The translations under genes and the position numbers were made by a program. A stretch of DNA of 63,977 nucleotides, counting the filler, from Reticulomyxa filosa (Eukaryota; Protista; Foraminifera), in assembly GCA_000512085.1 (NCBI GenBank). It is 18 parts of 18 records of this genome, joined end to end, with 100 filler letters (N's around TTAATTAATTAA, not from the genome) between each part and the next. Parts side by side here need not be neighbours in the genome. Positions count along the whole stretch, not along the records: positions 38,004 to 48,275 come from ASPP01025858.1; positions 48,376 to 51,185 come from ASPP01004204.1; 16 more parts are not named here. One strand, given 5' to 3'. Each line of letters starts with the position of its first letter. Within the stretch, counting starts at the first letter, position 1. The notes below the pieces were generated by a model. It was not told the DNA's origin. It did not search any database and saw only the letters and a list, made by a program, of their open reading frames with translations. Below, one piece after another: positions 33,599-51,185 of this stretch.

Positions 33599-35010
33599 TT
33601 AAGGTTTATTGGACTGATTATCTTGTTTATCAGTACTCTGCTGCTGTTGTTGTTGTTGTTGTTGTTCTTGAGGATATCCATAAATTCTCTCTCCAATTTT
33701 GCGCAGCGACTTGGCCAAGACATCTCTGGCGGTTTTGTAGTCCTCGGGAGTGGACGCCTCGTTGTTACGCACGTCCCTGAGATGGGCAATGGCTTGGACA
33801 ATTTCGTGTTTGAGTTCGTCGCCAACCTGTGGTTTGAACTCTTGCAGTTGCACTTCGGCCTGCCAAAGTTCGGTATCGGCGGCGTTTTTGACCTCAGCAG
33901 TTTCTTTGCGTTTCAAGTCCTGCGCATGCATTTGTTCGGCGTCTTGCTTCATGCGCGCGATATCGTCATCGGAGAGTCCGCCGCTGGTCTGCACGCGCAT
34001 GGACTGGTCTTTGGCGGACGCAATATCTTTGGCGGAGACGTGCAGAATGCCATTGGCATCCAAGTCGAAGGACACTTCAATTTTGGGATGTCCCCTGGGA
34101 GCAGGGGGGATGCCAATCAAATCAAAGTGTCCCAAGAACTTGTTATCGATAGCCATTTCACGTTCGCCCTGATATACTTTGATACCGACTTGAGTTTGGT
34201 TATCAAACGCAGTGCTGAACAGCTCTGTTCTCTTTGTCGGAATGGCCGTGTTTTTATCGACGAGACGAGTGAACAGACCACCTAAAGTTTCAATCCCAAG
34301 TGACAGCGGAGTAACGTCAATGAGCACAACCCCTTCCAATTTGCCTCCCAACACTCCGCCTTGAATCGCCGCGCCCATGGCCACCACTTCATCCGGATTC
34401 ACCGACTTGGACGGCACACGTCCGAAAAATTTTTCCGCCACCTCTTGCACTTTGGGCATCCTGGTCATGCCTCCAACCAAAATCACCTCCGCAAGATCGG
34501 ACTTGCTAACACCGGCGTCTTTCAAACACTGCTCGCAAGGTGCCAATGTGCGCTGAATATACTTGTCCACCAAACTCTCAAAGCGTGCGCGAGTCAACTC
34601 CATGTCCAAATGCTTTGGACCAGTGGCGTCCGCTGTGATAAAAGGCGCGCTCAAGTCTGTCTTCATTGCACTCGACAACTCGATCTTGGCCTTCTCCGCT
34701 ACCTCCTTCAGTCGCTGCACTACCAACGGGTCGTGCAACAAGTCCACATTGTTCTCCTTCTTAAACTCGTTTCCAATGTATTTCAACAGCTCGTTGTCAA
34801 AGTCCTCCCCGCCCAATGCCGTGTCCCCATTCGTCGCCATCACTTCAAACACCCCTTCGTTCAACGACAAGATACTTATGTCGAACGTGCCTCCGCCCAA
34901 GTCGAACACCGCCACCGTCCCGTCCTTGCGCGGGTCGGCCACTCCTGAGTCCTTCCCTATCCCATAAGCTAAAGCCGCTGCCGTGGGTTCATTCAATACT
35001 CGTTTCAACC
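33599..35010 (-). CDS. HSPA9: Mitochondrial Hsp70 (mortalin/SSC1, DnaK-type), last exon
   Basis: [51 protein letters not shown] (mitochondrial/alphaproteobacterial type), [14 protein letters not shown]. No EEVD or KDEL. Preceded by an intron acceptor and ends in polyQ. Confidence 0.95.
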
Positions 35011-35166
35011 TAAAAAAAAAACCAATTAACGAAAAATAAAAATAAAAATGTATATATGTATATATANNNNNNNNNNNNNNNNNNNNNNNNNNNNNNNNNN
35101 NNNNNNNNNNTTAATTAATTAANNNNNNNNNNNNNNNNNNNNNNNNNNNNNNNNNNNNNNNNNNNN

Positions 35167-37903: not shown

Positions 37904-38995
37904 NNNNNNNNNNNNNNNNNNNNNNNNNNNNNNNNNNNNNNNNNNNNTTAATTAATTAANNNNNNNNNNNNNNNNNNNNNNNNNNNNNNNNNNNNNNNNN
38001 NNNTTTTGTACTTGTTTTTTCTCAGATCTCTAATGCATACATCAAATGCTCACATACACTTCCAATACAAATACAAAAACTTCCAAGTACATATAGAGTT
38101 ACAATTAATTTGATCCGCATATCAACAACTGTAGAACTCTTTACACTCTTTTCTTGAGCATCAGGTATACTTACAGGAAACCCGCTTTTTGTGCATCCAA
38201 CAGCATGTCTTTGAGAAGACACCTTAAAAAAGAAGCTCAAAGGAAGTCTTTAGTGCTTCTCTAAGCGTAGAAACTGTTACCTGTACTGTATTCTCAAAGA
38301 CATCACAGTAGTGACTTTGTTATCCGTTTTAAATCTGGATTTTGTCTCACGTTACAAAATAAAAGCAATAAAAAGAAAAACTTATGCCTTCCACTTTAAA
38401 GTTGTGCTACACAACAAATGAATAAAGTGCATATACCAAAACATGGTTATGTTTTTTTCTTCCGTGTTTTTTGCAAAGATCACTAAAAAGCTTAAAACTT
38501 TTTGTTTATGGCTTTTTAACACTTTTATTAATAATTTGTAGTATAATATATTGAGTAACTGATGATCATCCATTCACTGGAGTAATTTACTGACAACCGC
38601 TTTGAAGTCAAAGATTTTAAAAATATGATCTTGTTTTGGGTTTTCTGCCTTAAACCATTTTAGCATCCATAATGTATGTTTTAGTTAATATTAATTTTGA
38701 ACATTGATTTTTTTGTTTATCCAAAACCGGACATGGATCGTGTACATAAACCACAATGTCCAAAAACTCACAAGTTTTGTTTAGTAGTTAGCGTTATACA
38801 CGAGAAGAAATTGCAGCGTAGTGATTATCCTAAATCCAAGCAGATTTTGAAAGCAAAGTAAAAACAATGGTTAATTTTGTAAAAGTGTGAACTCCGAGTT
38901 TTTTTGCAGTAAAAAATTAATTCACATCCAATTTATTTTTTCTTGTTTTGTTGTCATTGATATAATGTAAGCAAAAATGTTCTTGAATTGATATT

Positions 38996-41295
38996 CTACC
39001 CCAATAATCGAATTGCTCCTCCGTAAGTTCCACAGCATAATGTATAACTATTACTCTCGTTTGTTTTGTTTTTTGCATCAAGCTTATTTACTGCTGAAGA
39101 AAACAGAAAACAATATATTCCTCCATCATCACCACCCCCTTTGATCATATGTAATTCCCTACCCGATCGAATATCCCAAAAACGAATTGTATTGTCCCAT
39201 GATCCAGAACATATTATATTTGCATTACCAATTCCATTGTTAACAATTGGTAAATTGTCAACACAGTTTACATAATTTGTGTGTCCTCTGAACATGTGAA
39301 TTTCTCTTTTAGATCGAATATCCCACAAACGCACTGTTTTGTCTTCTGATCCAGATAATATTATATTTCCACTGCCATCACTTGCAATTTCATTTCTGGA
39401 ATATTTTACACATCTTACTACATTTTCGTGTCCTTCAAAAACAGCTATTTCTTTGGAAGTTTCGACATCCCATAAACGAATAGTGTTATCCCACGATCCA
39501 GAGCAAATGGTATATCCATTACCCCCAATTATACCAATACTGTTGCTAGTGCGATTTTTGACATTATGCAATGGAGAAAATTCGACACAGCGGACAGTGT
39601 TTGTGTGTCCTTTGAAAACATGTGCTAGCTGATCTGTTTCAACGTCCCATAGCCGAATGCAGGCGTCATTAGACCCAGAGCATAAATATCGACCACCAGT
39701 AAATGATGAAAATTGGATACAATAAACACTGTTTGTATGTTCTTTCAACACCCGAAAGGCCTCCGAAGTGTCAAAGTCCCAAAAGCGAATTGTTCTGTCA
39801 GTTGATGCAGAACAAACGACAAGACACCTGTAGTTATGATAATGATACGGGGAAAATTTCACACAATATACATGATCCGAATGTCCATCAAACAATTTCA
39901 ATTGTCCATTGCCTGCAAAATCCCAAACACGAATTGTTTTATCTTTTGATCCAGAACAAAGGAATTCGCCACCATCAAGTGATGAGTAATCAATACTCCA
40001 CACAATGCTGCTATGTCTGGTAAAAGTTTTAAGTGTTTTCGCTGAATAAAACCAATCAAAGTTGACAGTGGATGAAGATCGATTATTGCACTCGTTTTGT
40101 TCTTCGTTTTTGTTTGCATTACACAATTGAGAAGCATTCTTTTTTTCCATCAACTTAGCTTCCATATCAGCCTGGAGTTTGATTATTTCTTGTTTATGCT
40201 TTTTCTGTATCTCTTTCATTTCTATTTCTTTCTGCAAAAGCTGGCTTTCTTTCGATTGGATAATTTGCGAATACGTTTGAGTATTTTCATTCATCTGCTG
40301 ATTTCCATTTTCTTGTGTCTGCTTTTTTTTTGCTTCAGTTTTGCTATCTTTTTTCAAGTTCTTAACTTCAGAAATTCTTTTAAGCTTATTCATATTTGCC
40401 CCCCCCCCCAAAAAAAAGAGAAAGAATAAATTTAGAGTGTGTTGAACATTTTTGTTTTTGTTTATGATTTATTCATTTGTTTGTTTGTTTTTAAATCAAA
40501 ACTAGATTTTCTTTTAGAAAAGTTAAATTTTCTTCGTCTTTCTTCTTTTGTGATTGCATCTCCAGTTTTAACTTTTCGTGTTGCGAATTTAATTGAATTG
40601 CTTCTTTCTGTTTTTCCCATTGTTTGCTAATTTTTAATTTCATTTCAAAAAAAAAAAAAAAAAAAAGCAAACAAGGGCTAAGCTTGAAGTAATTGTATAG
40701 TTTGTTGCAACGATGTAAATGACTTTATGACCAAATCAAAATGGAATTGCATCTTTGAGATCAAATGCTGTTGTAATTCGCTCTTATTACATGTGTGATC
40801 ACAACCAAATGGTTGAAACCAACATTTGGAAAATTGCAGGGAACAGGAGCTATTCAAATGATCGTCCAAGTCTTTTAATTTTCCACTAAAATTACATTTA
40901 ATTCCCTTTCCATTGCTCACTTGTTGTGAGTCTTGTGTAAATTGCAGTGGGCATATCACATCCAATTCGCCGATATACCGTTGTGCTAATCTACTTTTGG
41001 CATACTGGCAATGGTTATGAGAGCGAACTGGACAAGAATTAGGATTTGAATTGAGAAAACGCTTCAAACACTCCTCTCCAACAAGAAATGCCCCTTCCAA
41101 TTCTTGATGTTCGGTACAGCTTATCTCAATGGGATTGTTCGCAATTTGTCCACAAATCAAACAAATCAACTCGCTAATTTGAGTATGGTTGTTCGACTGT
41201 AAAATCCAGTTTTTGCTGAAACACTGTGACCGCTCTGGAAAGAAGGGATCCGTAGTATCCTCTTTTTTGATCTTTTGATTCTCTTTTCTGCTCAT
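38996..41295 (-). CDS. Complete TRAF7-like architecture protein: variant RING - TRAF zinc finger - coiled coil - ~7 WD40
   Basis: Exon 1 (41295-40684): CLIC..C.EH..VGEEC..CPV..H..C and VICP..CNFSGKL..HL..C..CWFQPFGC..HL. GC-AG intron 40683-40608, short coiled-coil exon, intron, then a last exon with GH..V....FS..CSGS.D.TIR.WD repeats ending at stop 38996. Confidence 0.9.
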
Positions 41296-41971
41296 CTTGT
41301 GATTGATTTCTTTTTATCTATCGATTATAAATCTTTAAATTTTTTTTTAAATTGAATGAATGTATCTTTCCTTGGTCTAGACCAACAGTCTCGAACAACA
41401 ACGTACAATGTAAAAACAATAAATAAAAAGAATAGCATATGGAAGTGTTGTCACTTTTTCTGTTTTTTTAATGTTTTTATTTTTTATCATTTGTTGGATT
41501 ATTAATATTATTTTGGCACTAACAGTTAAAAATAAAGTTTCCCAAATTGGATAAAATTGGAGTAAGTCTACTTTATTGAAAAAATTTTATGTGAAGATTG
41601 TGTAAAGCTCTTGCATAAAATCTTCATTCCACAACTTGTCACGCTAGCTGTTAACACATGTTATATTGAATGCACAAAAAATATTTTTATAGAGGATTAC
41701 GAAAGAAGAAAATGATTGAAATGTCAGGCTTGCAAATCGTAAAAGTCAAATAACTATTTCAAACAAAAAATTGTAACGAAAGTCTATTCAAGACAATAAA
41801 ATACCACTAGAGTAATAAAGTCGTACCACAACCAAAACCTATTTGCAATATTCGTTTTTTAAAACATACGGAAAAAAAACATCACTAACAAAAATCCAAT
41901 CATCATGTTCCAACAAAAGATGTATGCATTGTTGGACACACATGAGCAAAAAAGTAATAACAAAACCACCA

Positions 41972-44678
41972 CTAACGACTGTTTGGTGTAAAGACAATGT
42001 CGTACAAAGTTGTATCTTGACTTTCCACACAATACCATTCTCCTTGTTGATTTTTTCGAATTTTGTCTCGAATTTCACGTAACATTTGATTTAGCGAATA
42101 ATTTTTCTTGTGTGCCTCTGTCATTACAGCGTGCATACATTGACTCAACAGCGAAGCGTCGCTGACAAGATGTCCTTTAGTAGTTGACCAAATAGTTAAA
42201 AAACCATCGTCGTCATGTCCATGAAATTGTTCTGATTGAATATTTTCTTGGTTTCCTCTCACCACAACTGCACGTGATTTTGGTCTATTTCGACCTCGAC
42301 AAGCATCAACAATGAATATTTTGGGACAATCTTTTAATGCTGCCATTTCATGGCAATTGAAAGAAGCACGAATTTTGCAATTGATATATCATTGCCTTCA
42401 CTGGTAACTAACACATTTCCAATATCACCATGTCCACAAAGAATTATGATCAATGCATCATATTTGTTGGAATTTTCTCGAAGCTTATAATTGGCAATCA
42501 CTGCATCTAAAAATTCTTCCACATCTGGTTTCAGCATTTTCGGCGATTCATTACAGATGAAATCATATTTCAATTCATCTTTGAACAATTTCTTAAAGTT
42601 TTCGAGATCTCTGTCCTTCACATTTTCAAGATTAGGCCAGTCTGTCTCTTTGTTATATTCACTGATTGCAATCATTATCACCAATGCATTATTAATCATT
42701 TTCTTTTGTCCACAGTTTCTCCAAATTACTTTCAAAGTTGGGATATCCTTCTCAAAGGCCTTGCGGACATCTTCATCAGATTGGATGGCCTGCTGATCCA
42801 TATCAACAATTCCCAATTTCAAATTCTTTGTTGTTATGGTTTCAAAGTCGCTGTTTTCCAAGCAATGATAAATGCGACGAACCAATTCTCCATAGGTTAA
42901 TTCATCCAGATAAATTTTTGTTTCCTTGTCATTGACTATTACATGTGCGGCTGCCTTTTTAAAAAGTTTCATTTTTTTTTTTTTTTTTTTTAAATAAAAA
43001 ATATGTATGTGTATATGTATATATGTTTATATTTATTTATTTATGAAAAGATAAATGACTTGGCTGGACCCTTGGTTGTTCTATTCAAATGACCAAAGTG
43101 TGGTATTGTACGACCTCACTTTGCAAGTCGATACAGCAAAAAAAAGGTAAAAGGGGTGCAAAGTAAAATAACATCATCAAGTGAGCGATAGTAAATATAG
43201 GATTCAATGGTAATGCAAATGTCAGGAATGTTACCATCGTGCAGTTGATTTTGCCATTTGCTGTTCGTCAGCAGCCACATTGCAAACTCCGGCTGTGCCA
43301 GCTGTTCAAAGTTTGCAATAATTTCCGCTTTGTCAGTTTCACTTTTATCTTTCCACCATTTCATCCATTTTTTCTGTTCTTCCCATTTCTTTTTTTTTTT
43401 TTTTTTGTAAGTAGAAGATATCCACAATGACTTTTTTAACAAAAAAAAAAAAAAAAAAAAAAGTAAAAAGCAATGCATCCTCACAACTGTATTTTCATTT
43501 GAGCATGTCTTGAATGTCAAAGCTTCATATCCATTCCCCTCTTTCTCCTTTGTGACATCACTGTCTTTGACGACGTTGTAATCAGCCAGGAGTGTTTGGA
43601 CTTCGTCCTTGTCCAGCACTTGATTCACAGATACTCGCACGTGCGTCAAGACCATGTTGGGTCCATCACGTCCTCCGAGAACATGCACAAAGGTGTTGTC
43701 GGCGGTCAAAACGCCCGCACATTCAGTCAAAGGGAGCGACAGTGAGCATGAAAAATATGTCCACTTGCGTTTGGCGAGGGAAAACTTGTGGACGAATTTG
43801 GTGGCGATAGTAGAGTCAGACGAACCAAGCTCACCTTCCCACGCACGAAAGAACAGAATGACATCATTGACACATACATAAGAATAATGGTGATACGGTG
43901 CAATAGTCTCACAAATAGGCAAATTGCAAAATTGAAATGTGTGTTTGTGTTCCTCAAAATCAATGGCTAATCCTGTCTTTTTACAAAATAACACCATTTC
44001 ATTATTGAAATACTTCTGCTGCTGTTGATGCTGATGCTGATACTGATACTGATACTGATGTGCTGCTGTTGATACAAAACAATGATATCGTATCCAATCC
44101 TCATGAATTGGTAATGTGCTACGACTCACATACTGAAATGTATTCAGGTCAAATACATCGATATTCTTGGGATAATACGTGATAAACAACAAATGGCTTT
44201 GGCTTCCACCGATCACTGCACGCATTCCGGCAAAATCGTCTTCCTCTTTGCCAATGCGAATTTCCTTGTCTTCGCTGTCTGTCAATGGAATCCATTCGTT
44301 CCAACACTTGTTTACTATTGCTGTTGTTGTTGCTGTTGCCATCGTATCACTTCCTCTCTTGTCCCACACACTCACGTAATTCAACGTCAACGTATACTTT
44401 TGCTCATTTTTGTCGCCACCCAAACACAACAACGTCATGTCAGCTGCTTCTTTACTGCTTACACGCTTCACCACACAGTGTCCGTGCAACTTCATATCCC
44501 TTGGGTACGCGCAGATCCGCTTGCACTGCTTTGCTACTGTATTATACGAATAACACTCGTTGTTCTCGTAACTTCCACAAATCAGAATCTCGTCGTTGTG
44601 CACCACACATTGGCTAAGTGAAAGTGCTGATGGTAATGGGGGTAACGGTTCAAACGGAATTGTTGATTGGTTCCCCAT
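41972..44678 (-). CDS. Myristoylated kelch-like propeller - helical module - PB1-like - caspase-family (C14) fusion protein
   Basis: Exons 44678-43488, 43388-43173, 43080-43060 (21-nt microexon) and 42954-41972, all phase-0 GT-AG. MGNQST start. PB1-like DMDQQAIQSDEDVRKAF. Catalytic ILCGHG (~42431) and KIFIVDACRG (~42300). One-base frameshift in a T4 run at 42373-42376. Confidence 0.8.
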
Positions 44679-45959
44679 ATTCTTATTTATTCCTAGTTTG
44701 AGGCCAAAGAAAAAAGTGATGCAAAGATTTTTTTAAAAAGGGGGGGTAGAAAATTCAAACAACAAAAAACGTTCTTTTCTAGGAGCAGTTGAAATACAAA
44801 TCCTTTAAAGAAGTTATTTACGTATGTTTTTAAAAATGAACGTATTTGCTACAAAAAAAAGATCCGATTTGATATCCATTACTCCGATGATCTTTATTTT
44901 TTGCATATATTCAATAAACAATGCAAGTCGACAAATTGCCAACAAAACGTTTGCATTTGTAGCAAGTTAACTGACAAAAAAAAGGCACCATTTTAAAAAG
45001 GTGATCACCAACCAATAACACACAAGTTGTCCATAGTATATCCTTCTTTAGCCTTTTTTTGTTATTGTGTGTGGCTTCCAAAACTTCGATCAAAAAGACA
45101 AGCAAGTGGATGCTCAAAAGACAGGCAAAAAAGTGGAAAAAAAAAAAGAAAGAAAATAATAAAGTAAAATAACAAAATAAAAGACATACTCAAAGGACAC
45201 AAATATATGTTAAAAAGAAAGAGCAAAAATTGAAGTTGACCAACAAGTGCAATTTTTGGTTGTATGAAGTACAAGGATCTCCCCCTAGCTCCCCTCCATA
45301 GGCACAACACGGAAACAAAAGTAACACGTTGTTTGCAAAGATCCTCTGTGACATCATTCACAGCCTCGCCCCAGCTAAACAAAAAGTTTAAGAAGAACAA
45401 ACAAGGTTTCATACTACACAAAATGCATACCTACACACTCTCTCTTTCATTTTTTTCCCTCAACTCTTTTTTTTTCCATTTTCCCCCTCTTTCCCAAAAC
45501 GATGTGTCCCTCAAAGATAAAAAAAGAGCAAACGTATTGCTCCTTATCTCTCAGGGGCACATTCAAATAAAAATTTTTTTTTTTTTTATGACAATTTTTT
45601 TTTAAAAAAAAGAAAAAAAAAATGTCAAATCAAATGCAAATAAAAAAAACAAATAAAAAAAAATAAAAAAAAGTGGTATGATCCTTGTTCGATTTTCTTA
45701 GGTTTTCAAGATGTGCGTTTTTGTTTTTTTTTGTACACCTGATTTTTTTTTCAAGGTTTTTAAAGGTTAGAAACCTCAAAACCAATGCACACATATAATG
45801 AAAACCAATCACATTTTTCCTGACTTAAGACGAAAACAAAAAAAAAAAAAGAAATTGCACTTGTTTTTTGTTTTTTTTTGTCAGAATTGTAAACGATACC
45901 TTATTGGTAGTAGTAATAATAATAATAAAAAAAAAAGAAAAAGCGCCTTAAAGTGGAAA

Positions 45960-48275
45960 TCAGAGATCCACATCCATAGTTTCGATTGATTCTCCAGGGG
46001 AATGGGGAAAAGGAGCAAAGGCGTCATTGTGACTCCACGTGAAGGTAGTGTCTGAGGCGACACTCCTCAGCTCGTAGTTGTTGACGGAATCCATTTTCGG
46101 AAACCCATTTCCGCTGTTGAAAAAGGCATTGGCGTCGACGAGACGACCAAAGTCACTACTTACCAAAGGCAACGAATTTCGACTGTCAGTAATCAATGGT
46201 GGCAAACTCAAATTGCCAATACTGTTGTTATTAATAATGTTATTATTGTTGTGGATGTGGCTGTTACTGTTGTTCACATGGCTACTGTTACTATTACTGT
46301 GGCCGTTGTTCACACTGTTAGGAGTGAAGTTATTCGGGCCAAAAAATCCAAACATGTTTGGGAACGCAGATGGGGCTGGAAATGTGGACACGGCTGGTAT
46401 TTGGTGCAGCGCAGGGAACGAAGGAGGCAATGTTTGAGGGATGGGTTGCGACGGCATTGCCGGGTTGGAGAAACTTCGATGGAACAGTTGCTGTGGAATG
46501 TCACTCGCAAAGCCAAACAGGTTCGTGTTCGGGCTCATCATCCCGTGGACCGGGGTTGATGACTGGTTTTGCAACATTTCAAACCGCACACGTAGTGCAT
46601 TCAGTTCATTCAGCAAGGACTGCTGTGCTTGCTTTGATGATGCAATTTCTTCTTTCTATTTATATACAAGTGATACGGATACATATACATACATGTATGC
46701 ATATATGTATAGATATAAAAAATAAAAAAAAGAAGCGAGAGAGTGACTCACTATCGATTTGATACGCTCTTCGTATTCGGCATTTCTGGACTCAGCATCA
46801 CCACCACGACGATTGGAAACATGTAACTGTTTGCGCAGTGATGACATTTCCGAGTCCTGAAAATTTGTCAATTGACGAATCTTTGTATCCATTTGGTCCA
46901 TGTTGTCTTTCAGCTCTTTGTTGTCTTGGCGGAGTTTCTGCCAACAGTCTTCCGAACTTTTTTCTGTCTTTTCCTTTTTTGCTCTCCTTGCTTTCACTGA
47001 AATTAATGGCTCGTCACTACTGCTGTTGTCAAAGTCGTCATCATCATTTGCATTTGCATTTGCACTTGCACTTATACTTGCATTTGCATTGTCATTCGTA
47101 TTGACTTTATTCTTGTCTTCACCATCACCGTCACCATTACCATCATCACCAATATTATTATCATCCATACTGTCACCAATTCCATCGATAAACCCATCGT
47201 CAGGAGGACTTTCTGTGCCATCGTCTTCCTGCTTTATGATATCTACTTCACTTAGCTCCATTTCATTCTTTTCGTTCTTGCTTTTTTTGTCCACCTTTCG
47301 CTTCGATTTCTTTTCGACTTTTACTTTCACTTTCAATTTCGTGTCCACTACCTCTTTCATCTTTGTTGCGCTTCGCTTTGTAAATGGCAGGTTCAAAAGC
47401 GGATTTGCCATTCCCATGCCATGTTTGTTCTTTTTTTTAAAAAATTGTTTGTTCCAAAGGAGAGGGATCACAGAAAGGATTTCTCTCTCGTTCAAGTCAA
47501 ATGCCGTTGTTGTTCTTGGAAAAAAACAAGCAAACCTGTGTCTTGTACATTATGTAAAGAGCAAAATATCGATCTGACCATTTCTATCATCACATGTTTT
47601 TGTTTGTGTACGTAAAAAAAAAGAATTGGTATTAAAAAAAAAAATTCAATCCCCCTTTTTTTTTTTTTTTGAAGAACACATTAAATATCAAACCTTGTAT
47701 AAATCAACAAAGTATTTCTTGGCAGCTGTACCGTTTTCTCTCTTGTTTTTGGTCTTTTTCTTGTCTCTTTCTTTGTTGTGCACCCACCAATCACCACTTG
47801 AGTGTTTCTTGTTGCTGTAAACACCTTCGTTCAAAAATGTTCACCATCTTCGATTTTCGTTTTTGAAAGGAGTGATCACATATCAATGGACGACTACCAG
47901 AGCCGCTGCCAGAGCCTATTGTTCCTGTAATCGTTGCAATGAAAAACTATCGAAGATACATACACATAATAAAAAAAAAAAAAAGGGGGCCAAAACACAC
48001 AAAAAAAGTCATGTTCACCTCTAACCTATACACATTTATGTACATAAAAGATTTTTAAAAATCTACAATAAAACAAACAAATAAACACCAGCTTTGGCGT
48101 TAAAAGTTAAAGTTACCTCGCATTGCAAATAATTGGTCAAACATTCAATTCCTTCCGAGTTGTTTTCCAATGCGTGTCCGACCTTCCATGCGTACTGTCC
48201 GAACACAATAACAACAAACAGTAATAATGGTAACAACAATTTTCCAAGTGATTGTGAACAAATCGGAAAAAAAAA
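45960..48275 (-). CDS. Hypothetical multi-exon protein with acidic, coiled-coil and P/N-rich regions (5' truncated)
   Basis: ORFs 46656-47495 and 45960-46616 are linked by a (TA)-rich intron, with further short upstream exons. No family recognised. Confidence 0.55.
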
Positions 48276-48499
48276 NNNNNNNNNNNNNNNNNNNNNNNNN
48301 NNNNNNNNNNNNNNNNNNNTTAATTAATTAANNNNNNNNNNNNNNNNNNNNNNNNNNNNNNNNNNNNNNNNNNNNCACCGTTCCCGTTTGCTTTTTCGTT
48401 CATTTTATTGGCAGTTCTGTTTTTTTATTTTAAAAAAAGGAGATATTTTACTTTTTTTAAAAAAAAAAAAAAAATTGAATTGAAAATACAAATAATCAG

Positions 48500-51185
48500 G
48501 AAACAATGAAGAAATGAAATATCCTGATGATGAAGAAATGAAATATCCTAATGATGAAAAACGAGAGATCGAAAATATTGAATTGGACCAAAATAAACCG
48601 TGGAATGAAGCGAACAAGACAGCTCACACAATAGTTGAGCAAATGGTTAAAAAAAAACAGAAGGGAATTGTGGTTGTTTCAACCAATCTTGATCAACTTG
48701 CAAGACCAAATGGTCGATGGTTTTTTCAAAATATTCCTTTTACAATGATGATTAATTCAGATAAATATATGAAAGAAAAAAAAGTAATTCCACCATATGT
48801 CGTTTATTCATTCCATTCAAAAAATATCACATTTGATAATGTTACAATCGATGGATGTGTTTATGTTATTGATTGTGTGATTAATGGGAGTGGTCATTTT
48901 CATATTACCCAACACCTTATTCATACCAGCCAATCTGTTATTCGTTATAACTTTCAACGACATGTTTTCACTGTTTCATTGCCCATTGACTCAAACAAGC
49001 TTATGAAATCGGGAATAGATTTATATGAGATATCAAATTTCGATGAAGCAATTGCATTGATTCGTTTTGCACTTTGTTTCAGATTGCAATCACAAAGTAG
49101 TTCTGATATTGACGTTGCACACTCTTTTTACTGGTTAGGAAAAGCATATAATGAGAAAGGAGAATTTGACAAATCAATTGAATATCACAAAAAAGCATTG
49201 ACAATAAGATTAGATAAATTGGAGCCAGATCACATTGACATTGGTGAGTCATACAATATGTTGGGAATTGCCCACGACAATAAACGAGAATACGACAAAG
49301 CACTTGAATTTTATCAAAAAACGCTAGTCATTTGGTCAAAAAAATTAGACAGTAGTCACAGTGATGTTGCTGATTCTTACAATAATTTGGGAAGAGTCTA
49401 TTATATGAAAGCAGAATATGACAAAGCATATGAATATCACAAAAAAGCATTGGACATTTATTCGCAAAAATCGGACGAAAATCAAATAAAGGTTGCCATT
49501 TGCTACTGTCATTTGGGAAATGTTCATTATAGAAAAGGAGAATATCCCGAATCAATTGAATGCCACGAAAAACACTTGAAAATTTCATTAGAACAATTAG
49601 GTGAAGATCATACAGATGTTGCGGCATCGTTTATTAATTTAGGAAAGTCATATTTTGAAACAGGGGAATATGAAATATCGATAGCATATCATGAACAGGC
49701 ATTACAGAAATTTGATGAAGCGCATGCATTTGTTGCAATATCATTGAATGAATTGGGATTGGTGTGGATAAAAGGAAAAATGCAAATAAATAAAGCTAAA
49801 GAATATGTCGACAAAGCTTTGGAAATTTTGATCGATGATAAGAGCAATGACTTTGATTTAGAGCTTGCAAAATCTTATGATGTGTTGGGATTGATATTGG
49901 AAAAAGATGGAAAATATGAAGAAGCAATCCAATCTTTTGAAAAATCGTTGGAAATTAGATTTAAAAATCTGAATGATAATGATCCTTATATTGCTTGGTC
50001 TTTTCATTATTTGGCAAGTGTATTCAAAAATAAGAATGATTTGGATAAATCAATTGAATATGGAGAAAAAGCTTTGAAATTGAGATTAAATAAATTAGAT
50101 TGGGATCATCCACACGTTGGTGAATCTTATATTCTTTTAGGAGATATTTATCTTGCAAGAGGAACCAAAACTAAAGCAAAGAAATGTTATGAAGATGCAC
50201 TCAAGATTTTTGATAAAAGGTTTAGTGAACAACATCAAAAGACAGTGCATGTGAGATTGATATTGGAAAAGATCAATGAAGTTTGATTATCTATTTTATT
50301 TTATTTTGCTGTTAATTTGTTTAATTTTTGTACTTTTCAAAAAAAAATAAATAAAAATAACAGCAACAAGCATATATCATTGTGGATGAAACGAAGGAAT
50401 TGATAAAACTGAAAGGCTTAGTATATGAAGAGTTAATTCAACAGATTTATTCTTGCTTAAATTTGCAATCTTTTAAAAAAATGCAACAAGAGAATTTGAC
50501 ATTTGATTTAGTTGATATGAGGGACAATATTATCGACTCAGATGAAGCAGTTCAACAATCATTTATGGTGGAAAAACCTTCATTTAAAATACGTTGGAGA
50601 CCAATAATAAGTGGAAAATGCAAGATAATAAAGAACGCATTAGTTGTGATGATTGCAATTAGTGAATATACTGATAAGAAAAAATATGGCGATCTTTCAA
50701 ATGTGAAAGACGAGGATGTCAATAATTTCAAACAATTATTTGAACAAGAATTGAATTATACATTTGTGGTCAATGAATCTCCACAAATGACAAAAAAAGA
50801 GGTGCGATCATTTTTGACCAAATTCATTGCAAAGTATAAACTTCATGCTAATACTCGCAAATATGATGGACTGATAATGATTATTTGTGGACACGGAGAG
50901 AAGGGAAATATGTTAGTGACGAGTGATGGAAAATCTCTATCAATTGACGAAATACGTGAATTATTTGGTTGTGATGTACTGGAATCTTTCAAAGATCTTC
51001 CAAAGATATTTATCATTGATGTGTGTCGTGGTGAAACCAGTCCAACGGCTCACTCAACAACAAGTACGAGAGGAAAGATACAAAAAAAGGAAACCGTACA
51101 GTCGTTGGGACATAGCGGTGACGGATTTTTGACCATTTGGTCAACTATATCAGGATATCAAGTTGCAGATTTTTCATTGTTGAGT
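48500..51185 (+). CDS. TPR-array - PB1-like - caspase-family (C14) fusion protein, truncated at both contig ends
   Basis: About ten 42-aa TPRs (DVADSYNNLGRVYY.K.EYDKA.EYHKKAL.I) up to 50280. Phase-0 intron 50281-50363 (GTTTGA..AACAG), then in-frame QQAYIIVDETK..DMRDNIIDSDEAVQQSF..ALVVMIAISEY..IICGHG (His 50892)..KIFIIDVCRG (Cys 51024). Confidence 0.8.

Follow-up and report, generated by a model that had tools for sequence, protein, structure and literature searches.

What does it mean that one protease-encoding exon stands behind two unrelated repeat domains in the foraminiferan Reticulomyxa filosa? The question is raised by two loci within a 63,977-nucleotide (nt) stretch of contig parts from this genome (hereafter, the window): gene 1, a kelch copy on the minus strand of the part at 38004-48275, and gene 2, a TPR copy on the plus strand of the part at 48376-51185, the joined parts being separated by N spacers. 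The original prediction placed homologous exons at 42954 (minus) and 50364 (plus) on different contigs, and the peptides that it quoted are found there. The two cassettes are 48% identical over 192 amino acids (E 1e-62), and both match Pfam C14, in agreement with the fold family that had been assigned. Each encodes a PB1-like ubiquitin-fold domain (Ubl, ubiquitin-like domain) followed by a peptidase C14 domain. We show that in public R. filosa gene models one such cassette follows kelch, TPR, Ras or TRAF modules, with a helical domain (HD) optionally between, which bears out the proposal of a modular family with several kinds of N-terminal module. The features of the two genes are as follows (pLDDT, predicted local distance difference test).

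43485..44678, minus: gene 1 exon 1, kelch-like propeller (ATG at 44678; Kelch_6 E 0.0011; family kelch profile E<1e-8)
43389..43484, minus: gene 1 predicted phase-0 GT-AG intron, 96 nt, 21% GC, in frame and stop-free, with an alternative donor 3 nt upstream
43173..43388, minus: gene 1 exon 2, 216 nt or 72 codons, four-helix domain HD (family profile E 2.5e-30; pLDDT 89.6)
43081-43172, minus: gene 1 predicted intron, phase 0
43060..43080, minus: gene 1 predicted 21-nt phase-0 mini-exon, the skipping of which would leave the frame unchanged
42955-43059, minus: gene 1 predicted phase-0 GT-AG intron, 105 nt, 11% GC, its AG directly before the cassette exon
42703..42954, minus: gene 1 PB1-like ubiquitin-fold domain (family profile E 1.3e-27), homologous to that of gene 2
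41972..42702, minus: gene 1 peptidase C14, frameshifted (His 42432, Cys 42301, linker Arg-Gly 42254-42259, stop 41972-41974)
42373..42378 (approximate), minus: gene 1 one-base deletion between His and Cys, next to a run of four A, judged by the family residues there
48377..48413, plus: gene 2, end of an N-terminal Ubl, cut by the contig start and whole in paralogs P0033/P0034
48414-48499, plus: gene 2 predicted intron, 86 nt, after the N-terminal Ubl tail
48500..50280, plus: gene 2 exon, a domain of about 150 amino acids and then the TPR array (Pfam TPR E 1.5e-67)
50281..50363, plus: gene 2 predicted phase-0 GT-AG intron, 83 nt, 14% GC, with an identical junction in public model RFI_04677
50364..50618, plus: gene 2 PB1-like ubiquitin-fold (beta-grasp) domain, 85 amino acids (pLDDT 93.2)
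50625..51185, plus: gene 2 peptidase C14, truncated where the contig stops (Pfam C14 E 2.3e-18; His 50892, Cys 51024)
50694, 51168 and 51069-51074, plus: further sites of the gene 2 protease, namely S1-type Leu, S1-type Asp and linker Arg-Gly

As had been predicted, both cassette exons lie directly behind AG acceptors of putative AT-rich introns in phase 0, and every predicted junction of gene 1 has that phase; phases were determined for these two genes, and in them the junctions fit exon shuffling. The 96-nt intron of gene 1 is kept as coding sequence in the database protein P0051. The upstream modules are those originally named: the TPR array is matched strongly, and the weak Pfam match of the kelch module (E 0.001) is backed by the family profile. 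The concern that annotation could miss both fusions proved right for the kelch gene, the database protein of which ends after HD and short of the cassette, and wrong for the TPR gene, since RFI_04677 (846 amino acids) already splices the TPR exon to the cassette, exactly between KINE and QQAY. Likewise, the dyad described as intact in both genes is so in gene 2, up to the contig end, but not in gene 1, where His 42432 and Cys 42301 fall in different reading frames. The run of four A beside the missing base, and the fact that this was the sole lesion noticed across about 2.4 kb of gene 1 coding sequence, bear on the choice between a recent pseudogene and a sequencing or assembly error, which we consider about equally likely.

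Two elements go beyond the original prediction, the HD exon at 43173-43388 and the N-terminal Ubl tail at the start of the gene 2 contig; in P0033 and P0034 this N-terminal Ubl weakly matches the cassette Ubl profile. The domain of about 150 amino acids ahead of the TPRs (48560-49020, plus) gave zero matches in Pfam, NCBIfam and PDB; it is conserved in P0033, P0034 and P0037. Exon 1 of gene 1 begins Met-Gly-x-x-x-Thr, which we take to be a myristoylation-type N-terminus.

The family was examined in automated gene models from a fragmented assembly, in which single cases are leads. All 50 homologs returned by a word search with the cassette, 31 near-length and 19 longer, are named R. filosa. By Pfam, the 19 longer ones comprise ten kelch-type proteins, five TPR proteins, one Ras protein (P0036) and three with C14 alone. 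A profile search over 1.84 billion representatives gave 70 matches at E up to 1e-30, and its best 150 rows were used. When 191 collected proteins were scanned with local family profiles for HD, Ubl and modules, HD or Ubl was present in 91, and the module was fused to C14 in 18 kelch, six TPR and two TRAF proteins. HD is duplicated in four models, missing from three of the six TPR members, and found as HSP70-HD-Ubl in one model (P0101). In P0042 (RFI_25219), a large N-terminal region (residues 1-450) with no Pfam family precedes HD-Ubl-C14.

In a FastTree tree of 99 rows (midpoint root; P0032, P0190, P0191 and domains shorter than 190 amino acids omitted), 42 R. filosa rows, 40 named and both window genes, form one branch together with eight unnamed rows (support 97). 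The neighbour of this branch is a metagenomic kelch-C14 protein, P0072, and because of this adjacency kelch-C14 looks like the older arrangement and TPR like a later swap, given the midpoint root. The TPR rows fall in an open fork. Repeated independent gains of TPR were considered, as a quick tree of 42 rows gave three changes, but we do not claim them, since N-terminally truncated models had been counted there as a separate group.

What kind of protease is it? The closest solved structures are animal caspases (E about 4e-7), and the catalytic dyad is conserved in the aligned C14 domains (His in 47/49, Cys in 43/46). The S1 sites were anchored on caspase-3. Gln283 aligned directly, Arg341 lies three residues beyond the alignment end, and the Arg179 site was placed by its distance from a conserved Asp, using the caspase-3 spacing; the R. 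filosa proteins contain one extra residue in this interval, which other foraminifera lack. Among the first 50 homologs, the Arg179 site is Leu or Ile in 47/47 and is followed by Asp in 44/47, the Gln283 site is Asp in 46/47, and the Arg341 site is Asp in 37/40. Arg was found at neither caspase S1 Arg position in any aligned homolog. The ten named proteins from Bolivina and Nonionella carry Leu (10), Asp (10) and Asp or Glu (7). Such a Leu/Asp/Asp acidic pocket is the para-/metacaspase set described in the available text of PMC2064784. With all three caspase S1 residues replaced, the enzyme would not be a caspase by specificity, and the caspase-type protease of the original prediction gives way to one with a putative acidic S1 pocket.

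The L4 linker points the same way. It is otherwise variable, and yet all 38 parsed R. filosa linkers carry Arg/Lys-Gly, against 11.4 expected from shuffles, and the motif recurs in 4 of 4 parsed named Bolivina/Nonionella linkers and in 18 of 20 parsed other rows; Asp-Gly/Ser/Ala occurs in 1 of 38 R. filosa linker cores. These counts concern related copies that are not independent of one another, and they cover the linkers that could be parsed (38 of 51 R. filosa, 4 of 9 named Bolivina/Nonionella and 20 of 129 other rows). Caspases are cleaved at a conserved residue of loop L4, and MALT1 has acidic S1 equivalents, according to the portion of PMC4357240 consulted. Because the acidic S1 pocket and the linker Arg/Lys-Gly agree, we predict with considerable confidence that the protease cleaves after Arg or Lys and processes itself. 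Both window genes have the motif DxCR, as do most homologs, and DxCH, the metacaspase motif criterion as given in the part of PMC5756287 at hand, occurs in 1 of 44 parsed proteins (P0020). Two paracaspase traits, the acidic S1 pocket and DxCR, are thus both present. General Pfam scans revealed no Ig domains of the kind found in type 1 paracaspases, and no NACHT or NB-ARC NTPase domain.

The 85-residue domain ahead of the protease had been expected to adopt a beta-grasp fold, and the AlphaFold2 model (44 sequences, pLDDT 93.2) has the beta-grasp order of elements. In a VIA-align fold search, PB1 domains took ranks 1-4, 6, 7 and 9, the best being the Par6 PB1 (Z 8.2, root-mean-square deviation 2.6 over 71 residues). 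Rank 11 was the ubiquitin-like dimerisation domain of protein kinase D (from the PDB title), a precedent for enzyme activation, and Ras-binding beta-grasp domains followed at Z 6.5-7.0 (ranks 13, 27 and 40). Foldseek returned ubiquitin, PB1 and Par3-N at E 0.007-0.04; Atlas neighbours, which we treat as leads, were GRHL1-C, TDP-43 N, PB1, CIDE-N and Par3-N at 0.83-0.90. Pfam PB1 (PF00564) did not match either window exon at E up to 1. In the sections of PMC7051960 that we used, PB1 domains are defined by a conserved beta1 Lys (type 2) and by an OPCA core, D-x-D/E-x-D/E (type 1). The beta1 Lys is absent from the family (Lys or Arg in no more than 3 of 35-39 proteins at beta1 positions), and so is the OPCA core: D51 is present in 33/43, whereas an acidic residue occurs at 53 in 3/43 and at 55 in 7/43. 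The acidic motif once read as a PB1 signature is therefore not an OPCA core, and since neither signature motif is found, we class the domain by its sequence as PB1-like and not as a PB1 member. What is conserved instead is a basic beta2 strand, with Lys or Arg in 27-32 of 39-42 proteins at four positions and K75 in 41/43, and an acidic patch, E58-S-D60-E61 (D60 in 41/43; position 61 acidic in 35/43). Judging by the fold, the basic beta2 and the acidic beta4/alpha2 patches would lie on opposite faces. The domain may work like PB1, or like a Ras-binding domain.

HD occupies the position where a death fold would be, and its four helices are predicted (pLDDT 89.6). It found no Pfam match and no usable Atlas match; the best E values were 4.3 against PDB by Foldseek and 1.9 against viral structures. 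By VIA-align, the best Z was 5.7, and no SAM or death fold was among the best 50 matches. A word search, which is a weak test, returned just gene 1's own protein.

Does the design extend beyond R. filosa? Thirty of the profile matches were examined: seven from Bolivina argentea, two from Nonionella stella (plus one cluster member), eight from R. filosa, one from prawn and 12 unnamed. The Bolivina and Nonionella proteases are fused to kelch (2), SAM (3), MATH and SAM (2), a weak SPRY match (1; E 0.002) and GGACT (1), and the family profiles detected neither HD nor Ubl in these fusion proteins. SAM, a head-to-tail polymer domain, is therefore present in five of the ten named Bolivina and Nonionella proteins. 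The Bolivina kelch-C14 fusions are single proteins (P0151, P0157). The Bolivina and Nonionella protein sets presumably derive from transcriptomes, and if this is true, then foraminiferal kelch-C14 fusions are single expressed mRNAs. Transcriptomes exist for Bolivina and Nonionella species, as the accessible text of PMC8153729 states. Separately, P0142, P0141, P0118, P0097, P0136 and P0154 join the same protease type to peptidoglycan-binding, Atg3-like C-terminal or GGACT domains or carry tandem double or triple C14, one of them being from prawn. The metagenomic protein P0106, in a clade near the R. filosa family, has an N-terminal domain weakly like the family Ubl and distant from its C14.

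The most likely account of how these proteins work, to which we assign a probability of about 0.5, is that engagement of the module drives clustering through the Ubl, that clustering leads to protease dimerisation, and that the linker is then cleaved at Arg. Architecture and residues are the observed part of this scheme. The module would bind a ligand, a membrane site or a partner; several kelch members start with Met-Gly, a possible membrane anchor. The PB1-like domain might link copies front to back through its basic beta2 and acidic beta4/alpha2 patches, and the resulting proximity would bring about dimerisation, by analogy with caspases and MALT1. The acidic S1 pocket is predicted to cut the protein's own linker at Arg/Lys-Gly and then substrates. 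The least supported step is the output, which might be a defence response or localised death within a cell that has many nuclei and feeds on bacteria. In a wider and more tentative form, Foraminifera might have built an inflammasome-like system independently, in which dozens of single-chain receptors use polymer domains (PB1-like, or SAM in Bolivina and Nonionella) in place of death folds to activate a self-cleaving, Arg-specific protease, with HD as a further adaptor.

Several observations weigh against module-driven clustering. Both PB1 signature motifs are missing, and PB1 scored within 1 Z of ISG15, FERM and Ras-binding folds in VIA-align. Five family models go from HD to C14 without Ubl, and P0072 has no recognised Ubl, so that the domain seems dispensable in some members. 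The Asp of the Arg341 site is less constant outside Reticulomyxa (Asp or Glu in 7 of the 10 named proteins), and a caspase-like dimer interface of the C14 domain is assumed. The fusions in both window genes rest on predicted splicing, and the Ras, TRAF and HSP70 fusions are each known from one or two automated models. The role in defence or death leans on animal and bacterial analogy and on the size of the family.

Alternatively, the proteins might be targeted proteases that form no polymer: kelch, TPR, MATH or SPRY modules would choose substrates or locations, the Ubl would bind another partner (for instance a GTP-bound Ras-family GTPase, or the divergent N-terminal Ubl that TPR members carry), and cleavage at the linker Arg would activate the enzyme. 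We regard this as possible, though on balance unlikely. It is favoured by the fusion of P0036 to a Ras domain, by the Z scores of the Ras-binding beta-grasps, by the conserved basic residues on beta2 (RA domains use the beta2 edge), by the lack of PB1 motifs, by the two different Ubls in TPR members and by the invariant linker Arg-Gly. On the other hand, an acidic patch opposite a basic one suits self-association, the top ranks of the fold search went to PB1 domains, and other foraminifera have SAM in a similar place.

It is a good deal less probable that most of the family is left over from duplications in a genome prone to them, as shuffled exons and pseudogenes that do little. Gene 1 is frameshifted, P0045, P0073, P0102 and P0116 seem by eye to be out of frame within the cassette, and 34 of the 91 models consist of Ubl-C14 alone, many of them named partial. 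However, the dyad, the S1 residues and the linker Arg-Gly are nearly invariant although the copies are 43-86% identical to the query, and related kelch or SAM proteases appear in the Bolivina and Nonionella protein sets. That the repeat open reading frames (ORFs) form genes of their own, next to those of the Ubl-protease exons, is the least probable of these explanations: in-frame stops do end both repeat ORFs (50284-50286 and 43116-43118), and an in-frame ATG lies six codons ahead of the gene 1 acceptor, but the first Met of the gene 2 cassette exon is residue 40, within the domain, the gene 2 stop reads as Trp in its closest paralog P0033, HD begins just past the position of the gene 2 intron start in P0034, P0023 and P0038 (three of the six TPR members), 19 public models are long fusions, and the Bolivina kelch-C14 fusions noted above are single proteins.

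The family is a variation on a known theme of repeat or interaction domains joined to C14, and its fusions were already partly annotated. Klim et al. 2018 (PMC5982838) described caspase homologs of R. filosa, which PMC10565124 restated and PMC10959488 used as an outgroup, insofar as those texts were available; these homologs come from the same organism and very likely belong to the family described here, of which NCBI names several members caspase-3 or -8. In the parts of these three papers at our disposal, the proteins count as caspase homologs, and neither their architecture nor S1, which here is predicted to be acidic, is analysed; PMC5982838 has zero mentions of PB1. The family resembles MALT1 (C14B) in having acidic S1 residues at three corresponding positions (PMC4357240, in part), DxCR, predicted Arg specificity and, presumably, activation driven by recruitment. 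Unlike MALT1, it has no Ig or recognised death domain and comprises dozens of paralogs with variable modules, and its linker Arg-Gly suggests processing, of which MALT1 needs none. Animal initiator caspases (CARD/DED-caspase-8, -9) share an interaction prodomain directly ahead of C14 and a conserved L4 linker site; in the foraminiferan family, however, the prodomain is a beta-grasp plus four helices, P1 is predicted to be Arg or Lys, and the binding module sits on the same chain.

Bacteria commonly fuse repeats to C14 (TPR, WD40, Sel1, NACHT), and bacterial metacaspases and orthocaspases likewise combine a repeat domain with an acidic-pocket C14 in lineage-specific architectures, according to the part of PMC3501461 consulted. 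The foraminiferan family differs in being eukaryotic and intron-containing, with kelch, Ubl, SAM and MATH; kelch and ubiquitin are unmentioned in that same part of PMC3501461. None of the NCBIfam C14 models matched the family protease. The PB1 domains of p62, NBR1, Par6 and TFG, together with CIDE-N, Par3-N and TDP-43 N, share the fold and a pair of conserved patches of opposite charge, but the family has neither the beta1 Lys nor the OPCA core of PB1. The available sections of the eukaryotic PB1 survey (PMC7051960) mention neither caspase nor peptidase, and list only kinase and NBR1 families for cryptophytes and SAR (stramenopiles, alveolates and Rhizaria). PMC8195603 mentions neither Reticulomyxa nor PB1. 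In the literature searched, outside which lay subscription journals, the genome paper and supplements, we found no description of a C14 protease that carries a PB1-like domain, or of the architecture or specificity of this foraminiferan family.

PMC5982838 and PMC10565124, as far as those texts were seen, cite Reticulomyxa 'caspases' in support of a caspase origin as early as the last eukaryotic ancestor, and the predicted acidic S1 pocket and the linker Arg-Gly undercut that use of them as true caspases. If the Arg/Lys specificity is true, it supports Asp specificity as an animal-specific trait; our trees contain neither MALT1 nor metacaspase sequences. Should the domain polymerise and activate the enzyme, induced proximity would be reached by a new route, which would offer a first way into the question of how a giant multinucleate protist detects threats and reacts to them.

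Other features of the window were noted in passing. On a GC-richer contig at 7680-16026 (minus), there are long ORFs of 404, 812, 1109 and 356 amino acids, one with SPRY (E 6e-10) and the others without Pfam matches at 1e-8. Upstream of gene 1, a two-exon gene at 45960-47549 (minus) encodes acidic, coiled-coil and low-complexity regions, with no Pfam match at 1e-8. An HSP70 gene fragment lies at 33602-35065 (minus); the HSP70 fused to HD and Ubl in P0101 belongs to a separate R. filosa model. Immediately beyond the 3' end of gene 1 and on its strand, a zf-TRAF ORF (E 3.4e-7) followed by a WD40 ORF at 38996-41313 (minus) probably forms a single gene, and P0027 and P0064 carry the same TRAF module joined to the protease.

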